From Eledone cirrhosa (lineage: Eukaryota): a stretch of 64,000 nucleotides of DNA. Below the pieces are notes generated by a model, which was not told where the DNA came from, made no database searches, and worked only from the letters and a program-made list of their open reading frames with translations. The DNA lies in the NCBI GenBank assembly GCA_964016885.1, contig OZ024747.1:89218001-89282000 (forward strand), written 5' to 3'. Below, one piece after another: positions 14,345-14,759 of this stretch. The position numbers and the translations under genes are program-made. The number at the start of each line of letters is the position of its first letter. Position 1 is the first letter of the stretch.

Positions 14345-14415
14345 TGTTTTATCTGATGAAAACACAAATATTATTGCATGATGATGTTTGTTTTTGAAAT
14401 GCGCATAATAAAATA
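14345..14415 (+). ncRNA. Minimal type I hammerhead ribozyme (P1)
   Basis: Stem I tgttttat/ataaaata; CUGAUGA 14353-14359; long stem II; GAAA 14396-14399; palindromic stem III tgcgca; UA, predicted cut after 14407. Confidence 0.85.
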
Positions 14416-14694
14416 CATGGAACTCCTTTAACCATCTTTTGATCTTATATTATGTATACTCCAGTCCTACAAACTGTAGAGTGCTTCTTATCCGATATCT
14501 GCATTGCTTTATTGTACTACAATAAAACTCACCTCCTACATATATATATATATATATATATATGCAAAAGTTTTATTTAAATTGTTGGGATACAACAAGC
14601 AAATATTTTTATAACTGATATAAAGCACTCGACAAATATTTGGAGTAGATATACGATATTAATAAATGGAAACTATATTTTATAAAACCATATT

Positions 14695-14759
14695 TATTTC
14701 ATTATATATATTTCAAGGATACCAAGTTACATTATGGTATGCCTTCATCAGACAAAATA
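14695..14759 (-). ncRNA. Minimal type I hammerhead ribozyme (family P2)
   Basis: Minus strand: tattttgt CUGAUGA aggcatacca..tggtatcctt GAAA tatata UA atgaaata. Confidence 0.8.

Follow-up and report, generated by a model that had tools for sequence, protein, structure and literature searches.

The window, which is the whole stretch of DNA analysed here (64,000 nucleotides of contig OZ024747.1 from Eledone cirrhosa, positions 89,218,001 to 89,282,000), comes from a microsatellite-rich genome of 3.0 Gb. A descriptor scan identified seven minimal type I hammerhead ribozymes (HHRs) across these 64 kb, compared with 0 matches in each of 30 locally shuffled windows. The scan recovered the four hammerheads described in an earlier sequence-only reading, at 14345-14415 (+), 14695-14759 (-), 60300-60370 (+) and 60475-60541 (-), and a fifth one which had been overlooked, at 14177-14247 on the minus strand. 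According to that reading, a hammerhead termed P1 on the plus strand and one termed P2 on the minus strand face each other within 100-300 bp across a (TA)n tract at two loci. This arrangement is indeed present at both of them, with the predicted cut sites 296 nt apart at locus 1 and 121 nt apart at locus 2.

At locus 1, a (TA)n tract (14116-14141) marks the left end of a P1 insertion. It is followed by an inverted P1 arm on the minus strand (14134-14286), a tail-less end carrying the overlooked HHR with a predicted cut 3' of 14185, and by the main arm on the plus strand (14284-14538), the 3' pseudo-LTR end of a Hydra-type Penelope-like element (PLE), which carries the HHR at 14345-14415 with a predicted cut after 14407 and ends in a tail of ~80-90 nt (about 14459-14538). 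With the additional minus-strand hammerhead, P1 at this locus is a palindrome, whose 153-nt arms (14134-14286 and 14306-14458) are 99% complementary. Positions 14288-14538 are 100% identical to a solo copy (L084), and the same end sequence also terminates an ORF-bearing copy (L091) and precedes the ORF in another (L093). A second tract (14539-14563, with the TA repeat at 14541-14562) is common to P1 and to a 5'-truncated copy of family P2a on the minus strand (14564-15236), which consists of a tail (about 14564-14645), the HHR at 14695-14759 with a predicted minus-strand cut 3' of 14703, and then 3' UTR, and which is 98.5% identical to its nearest copies. A short repeat of another family (15237-15384) adjoins the 5' end of this P2a copy; it is 75% identical to a copy in L230 that is itself flanked by TA.

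Locus 2 begins with a 5'-truncated, tail-less P1 copy on the plus strand (60175-60400; HHR 60300-60370, predicted cut after 60362), which represents another subfamily; the two P1 copies of the window are 90% alike over 175 nt. The (TA)n tract at 60401-60429, with the TA repeat at 60401-60428, is common to this P1 copy and the tail-less 3' end of family P2b on the minus strand (60430-60669; HHR 60475-60541, predicted cut 3' of 60483), which is 99.6% identical to its nearest solo copy. Fused directly to this 3' end are the end of the leader and the first ~33 codons of the P2b ORF (60669-60788, minus strand), 95-96% identical to the ORF start in L295. Judging from this fusion, the copy is an internally deleted or template-jumped one. 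The joint skips about 4 kb at a short AT-rich overlap and is absent from the other 39 of 40 scored matches of the P2b search. Because P2b is 99.6% identical to its nearest copy and P1 93.6-98%, P2b was probably the second arrival, having inserted after P1.

The junctions are thus of different types: the P1 and P2a ends that meet at locus 1 are both tailed, and those at locus 2 are both tail-less. P2, which had been treated as one family, comprises two, since P2a and P2b are alike over the 67-nt HHR only (73%) and their ORFs differ. The statement that the copies have diverged and do not represent a recent segmental duplication holds: the flanks of the two loci do not align, which rules out such a duplication.

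The four HHRs of the facing pairs have intact CUGAnGA and GAAA cores, an 8-bp stem I, a hairpin stem II, an AUA cut triplet conforming to NUH and a short stem III that is palindromic or nearly so (in P2b it contains one G-U pair and the palindrome is imperfect), which are the features of minimal type I hammerheads. Stem I pairing is preserved in nearly all common variants, and the sequence of stem II changes. As an Rfam scan of the window returned no hammerhead family at E<=1 and only repeat-driven miRNA matches, the identification rests on the descriptor and on stem pairing preserved across variants. On this basis the four motifs are minimal type I hammerheads for which self-cleavage is predicted. 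RNAfold z-scores were weak for single HHRs except 60300-60370, AU-rich minimal motifs making such folding uninformative. Minimal HHRs of PLEs act as dimers; folding of dimers led to mixed structures.

Outside the window, the hammerhead-bearing ends were found attached to coding elements. The ORF of P1 comprises 800 aa in L091, that of P2a is visible in L207 and L212, and that of P2b was found in broken pieces only (L295, L302 and L306); the P2 proteins are 45-54% alike to that of P1. In tandem copies of all three families the pseudo-LTR has the order HHR, first end, tail, second end, leader and ATG. The reverse transcriptase (RT) motif YRDD and the motifs of a GIY-YIG-type endonuclease (EN) could be aligned in the three families. 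SDKTNNLY, in which DKG is changed to DKT, is present in 3/3 families, and the CxCX5C linker reads CNCRIKNKC, CNCRNKSNC and CNCRNRPDC. Around a conserved E and N, the family ORFs have CNLC or CDLC as CxxC and CLH or CRH as CxH, and no CCHH motif was seen in them. At the N-terminal RWK position RW is found in all three families and K is absent (RWTA or RWIA, RWRA, RWGA). By eye, these motifs match those of Hydra proteins in the supplement to the clade-defining paper (PMC8557442). In addition, Atlas neighbours of the ORFs at 0.96-0.98 carry HTH_animal, GIY-YIG and RVT_1, and 18 homologues were found at 29-38% identity, mostly with PF26215. Pfam gave no RT or GIY-YIG match for the family ORFs, and PDB sequences gave no informative match.

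The single ORF with RT and a GIY-YIG EN at its C-terminus, characteristic of the Hydra clade, is therefore present, the P2b ORF being known in pieces, as are the HHR in the pseudo-LTR and the insertion into (TA)n. Direct pseudo-LTR copies lie 3.7-4.4 kb apart, which exceeds the length of <3 kb given for the clade, a descriptive value qualified by "generally". Taken together, the motifs compared by eye fit the Hydra clade, and P1, P2a and P2b are each the 3' pseudo-LTR of a separate PLE with its own RT/GIY-YIG-type ORF.

These elements are abundant. A P1 30-mer had 14,643 exact matches genome-wide and a degenerate 21-mer for the P2 class 46,004, while backwards (reversed) patterns used as controls gave 0-3 matches; subfamily-specific 27-mers had 369 exact matches for P2a and 493 for P2b. 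The three Hydra-type families thus contribute at least about 60,000 exact-match HHR-bearing ends. TA was found within 230 nt of 208/218 P2-class ends and 43/51 P1 ends. In L007 and L026 (P2a) and in L093 (P1), the ORFs are long and open and pseudo-LTR ends are 98-100% identical to one another, which suggests that both families were recently active.

The end types of two-ended insertions follow a nearly strict rule. Same-family insertions of P1, P2a and P2b were selected by having one leftward and one rightward terminus on (TA)n, and of these 72 two-ended insertions, 71 (22/23, 29/29 and 20/20) had one tail-less and one tailed end, with tails of about 80-100 nt (examples are found at L043, L091, L196, L207 and L230). 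As outward pairs were selected, this number describes the end-type rule and not the share of two-ended insertions. The rule suggests that priming on the two target strands takes place at different sites of the RNA. Within the first 100 P1 matches, P1-P1 neighbours within 6 kb were back-to-back in 28 cases, in tandem in 3 and facing in 0. Since same-family neighbours are mostly back-to-back, neighbours across a tract meet tail-to-tail, and the bias towards facing pairs follows from the outward-pointing ends that each insertion brings along. First neighbours within 500 nt were on opposite strands in 8 cases and on the same strand in 2, and both same-strand cases have a degraded facing arm.

How often the two families face each other was determined in sampled loci, from which the window copies (L001, L031, L263) and eight loci selected by their junction (L193-L200) had been left out. 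Only 1 of 218 distinct P2-class ends (0.46%) faces P1 within 500 nt, and the 1 of 51 P1 ends that faces P2 belongs to the same pair, in L207. Independent targeting of TA predicts 0.26-0.55%, based on 680-948 tracts per Mb in 40 arbitrarily placed 10-kb stretches. The sequence-only reading had proposed to compare the distance and orientation of P1 and P2 with the distribution of TA tracts. In this comparison the frequency corresponds to chance, whereas the orientation is not random but biased to facing. The first 18 Mb of C1 contain 43 exact matches of P1 and 100 of the P2 class, with no P1 match within 500 nt of a P2-class one. Partners are also non-specific, as P1 faces another HHR family in L230 and bare P2b tails in L043 and L103.

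Two P1/P2 pairs in one 64-kb window are nevertheless rare under independence, with 0.15-1.2 such windows expected genome-wide, so that chance together with after-the-fact selection is required. Local enrichment of HHRs was considered as a cause and rejected, as 5 HHRs were found in 200 kb sampled from the same arm of C7. It may alternatively be that the insertions are separate but that TA tracts at earlier Hydra ends, being long, pure and accessible, are preferred, with a 2-4x pile-up over the prediction from TA density. This we regard as a tentative possibility with somewhat less than even chances, and it refines the explanation by independent insertions rather than replacing it. Besides the two pairs in this window, it would account for the 8 short-end P1/P2b junctions found where about 3-6 were expected, with 40 of 3,794 candidates scored, for 5 pairs of P2-class ends facing each other among 218 ends, and for 2 any-family facing pairs in arbitrarily placed stretches totalling 610 kb (about 0.2 per window), compared with about 0.5 expected. 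However, the sole formal test was not significant: in a set of 167 focal ends, smaller than the 218-end sample, 8 faced an HHR of any family by the descriptor compared with 30 of the 758 tract sides that served as background (Fisher p 0.67), and 10 of 167 did so when two degraded arms read by eye were added (p 0.29), the odds ratio of 1.2-1.5 itself pointing towards preference. The other counts are too small to test, and the expected numbers rest on exact matches, so that diverged copies are undercounted. Moreover, local TA density ranges from 0 to 54 tracts per 10 kb, so some excess would arise from density variation alone. As several counts come to roughly double what the simple model predicts, ends may be mildly over-clustered (about 2x), and TA at element ends may be a preferred target of later insertions.

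The first of two explanations offered earlier was that P1/(TA)n/P2 constitutes one composite, retrozyme-like non-coding element between two opposed ribozymes, able to process sense and antisense RNA. Such an element would be non-autonomous and would be copied as a unit. The pairing does recur: besides the two window loci and the junction in L207, at least seven further P1/TA/P2b junctions were found with the whole locus-2 junction as query, 40 of 3,794 candidates being scored. The spacing between the HHR motifs is similar in eight P2b junctions (118-134 nt), but a contiguous BLAST query selects for such spacing. In the eight P1/P2b junctions, however, pairwise identities in one half do not correlate with those in the other (Mantel rho -0.005, p about 0.52, 5,040 permutations, n=8; the P1 half of L199 is truncated in this comparison), and the nearest relative is a solo copy for 15 of 16 junction halves among 53 P1 and 79 P2b sequences. 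The exception is the P2b half of L195, for which L197 is the nearest of 79. L195 and L197 are mutual closest composites in both halves (97%) and have the subfamilies of both halves in common, a resemblance that either activity at the same age or a shared origin would explain.

The outer structures differ among all eight P2b junctions, and several of them have as their P1 or P2b half an entire insertion whose own far end is tailed and lies on TA. Of 1,319 candidates for a second, full-length copy of the locus-1 junction (P1 tail, TA, P2a tail), 39 other places were scored and none was such a copy, in a search in which common P1 words were skipped. Furthermore, P2 family and end type differ between the two loci of the window, each half has a separate ORF in its own family, 217 of 218 P2-class ends have no facing P1, and there is one HHR per strand, while non-LTR retrozymes need tandem same-strand HHRs (PMC7229834; bioRxiv 10.64898/2026.07.22.740005). 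The unlinked halves and the rarity of the pairing largely refute the composite element, which we consider highly improbable. The second explanation offered, that PLE families repeatedly target the same TA tracts tail-to-tail, is supported by separate ORF-bearing families, ends on (TA)n and unlinked halves.

It could also be argued that the pairs are assembly chimeras at TA repeats. Contigs from four public runs break at the TA repeats of locus 1 and none spans the junction, with reads that seem to be cut at 14530-14572, so that this junction is without independent confirmation. On the other hand, the assembly contig reaches chromosome scale (94 Mb), the tracts measure only 22-28 nt, and ten such junctions with distinct flanks occur at the expected frequency, which makes an artefact extremely improbable.

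Very probably, then, each facing pair represents two independent insertions of sister Hydra-clade PLEs into the same (TA)n tract, the ribozymes being the pseudo-LTR hammerheads near their ends. In such a mechanism, the GIY-YIG-type endonuclease would nick (TA)n on both strands, and the RT would start on each strand from one of two internal sites in the RNA, separated by about 90 nt. The latter step is modelled on the Poseidon PLE PAc from the green anole, for which the report describes that in vitro both target strands are cut and extended and that reverse transcription starts at two internal sites bracketing the tail, HHR cleavage being unneeded (Frangieh et al. 2024, PMC11167929); two start sites and extension of both strands would yield two end types as seen here. 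Both ends of an insertion would then be outward-pointing "3' ends" located 40-150 nt past the hammerhead, and the insertion would split the tract such that TA remains at both ends. As a consequence, a later element landing there would usually meet the earlier one tail-to-tail. Because an RNA of either strand across the junction contains one HHR, no monomer or circle could be excised, and the facing pair itself is predicted to be functionless. That a minority of junctions, e.g. of the L195/L197 type, might be copied as a chimeric unit or kept for trimming sense and antisense transcripts around the TA core is very unlikely; if true, it would amount to a bidirectional ribozyme cassette built from two retrotransposon ends.

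The window contains further repeats. A further HHR family, P3, occupies 9244-11570 with back-to-back HHRs at about 9275-9336 (-) and 11415-11474 (+); it has a GUA triplet and arms that are 89% alike, its left end borders on TA, at its right end a probable tail precedes (CA)n(TA)n, and it is built like P1 and P2. A Hydra-type endonuclease-end remnant at 47803-48231 (-) is 37% identical to that of P1 over 99 aa and has a short terminal inverted repeat. RT ORFs of non-LTR retrotransposons lie at 5130-7253 (-), 16330-18870 and 40934-43120. They include a frame of 707 aa that matches RVT_1 (E 5e-20), together with two other copies which are 75% alike and which we take to be RTE-like. A satellite of 59 bp is present at 53864-56124 in 38 copies with 94% matches. 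Retrozyme-like tandem arrays of other families were seen elsewhere, with seven same-strand HHRs at a spacing of about 482 nt in L256 (486-3396; C11) and three at 527 nt in L239.

The pairing itself is of minor importance, being the expected product of a genome crowded with TA-targeting, outward-ended retrotransposons. It does call for caution in ribozyme surveys, as facing hammerheads around a microsatellite can mimic an ambisense or retrozyme unit. To transposon specialists, two results may be of modest value. The first is the number of HHR-bearing ends from three Hydra-type families, given that the clade-defining paper lists a single octopus family, Hydra-1_Obim from Octopus bimaculoides (PMC8557442). 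The second is the near-strict combination of a tail-less with a tailed end, whose suggested basis could be examined with the in vitro assay already available for PLEs. A literature search reaching few subscription papers found no facing HHR pairs of different families, and for cephalopod PLEs with hammerheads only one paper (Craig et al. 2021, PMC8557442).

Several known systems show a partial resemblance to the facing pairs. Like here, viroid-like circular RNAs can have one ribozyme per strand. They are RNA replicons that carry ribozymes on both polarities and are cut from rolling-circle multimers, whereas the pairs described here have no multimer and no conserved unit, and no rod-like complementarity between their halves was detected beyond the HHR core common to both.

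The pairs share with non-LTR retrozymes the type I HHR, low GC, the relation to PLEs and a non-coding region a few hundred bases long (Cervera and de la Pena 2020, PMC7229834; bioRxiv 10.64898/2026.07.22.740005). Retrozymes, however, consist of head-to-tail units, and their same-strand HHRs set free monomers and circles. The HHRs of the pairs are on opposite strands, of the minimal PLE type and from different coding families; neither locus has a tandem unit, and no family of whole dispersed copies was found. PAc offers a model for both-strand priming, but Poseidon is a different clade, and that report indicates no start-site difference between strands (PMC11167929), as opposed to the one site per end in 71/72 insertions here.

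The closest likeness is to the Hydra clade itself, almost all families of which insert into (TA)n and carry HHRs, PLEs often coming with a 5'-truncated copy in inverted orientation and with one tailed end, according to the clade-defining paper (Craig et al. 2021, PMC8557442). The families of Eledone cirrhosa share the single ORF with RT followed by GIY-YIG-type EN, the DKT, CxCX5C, CxxC and CxH motifs without CCHH, the HHR near the 3' end, the (TA)n insertion, the inverted 5'-truncated copy and the one-end tail. Compared with the same paper, they differ in that the elements are longer (about 3.7-4.5 kb, with 3' UTRs of 1-2 kb, instead of generally <3 kb), in that the tails measure about 80-100 nt instead of 30-40 bp, in RW[T/I/R/G]A in place of RWK, in HHRs distinct from that of Hydra-1_Obim, and in the presence of tens of thousands of HHR-bearing ends.
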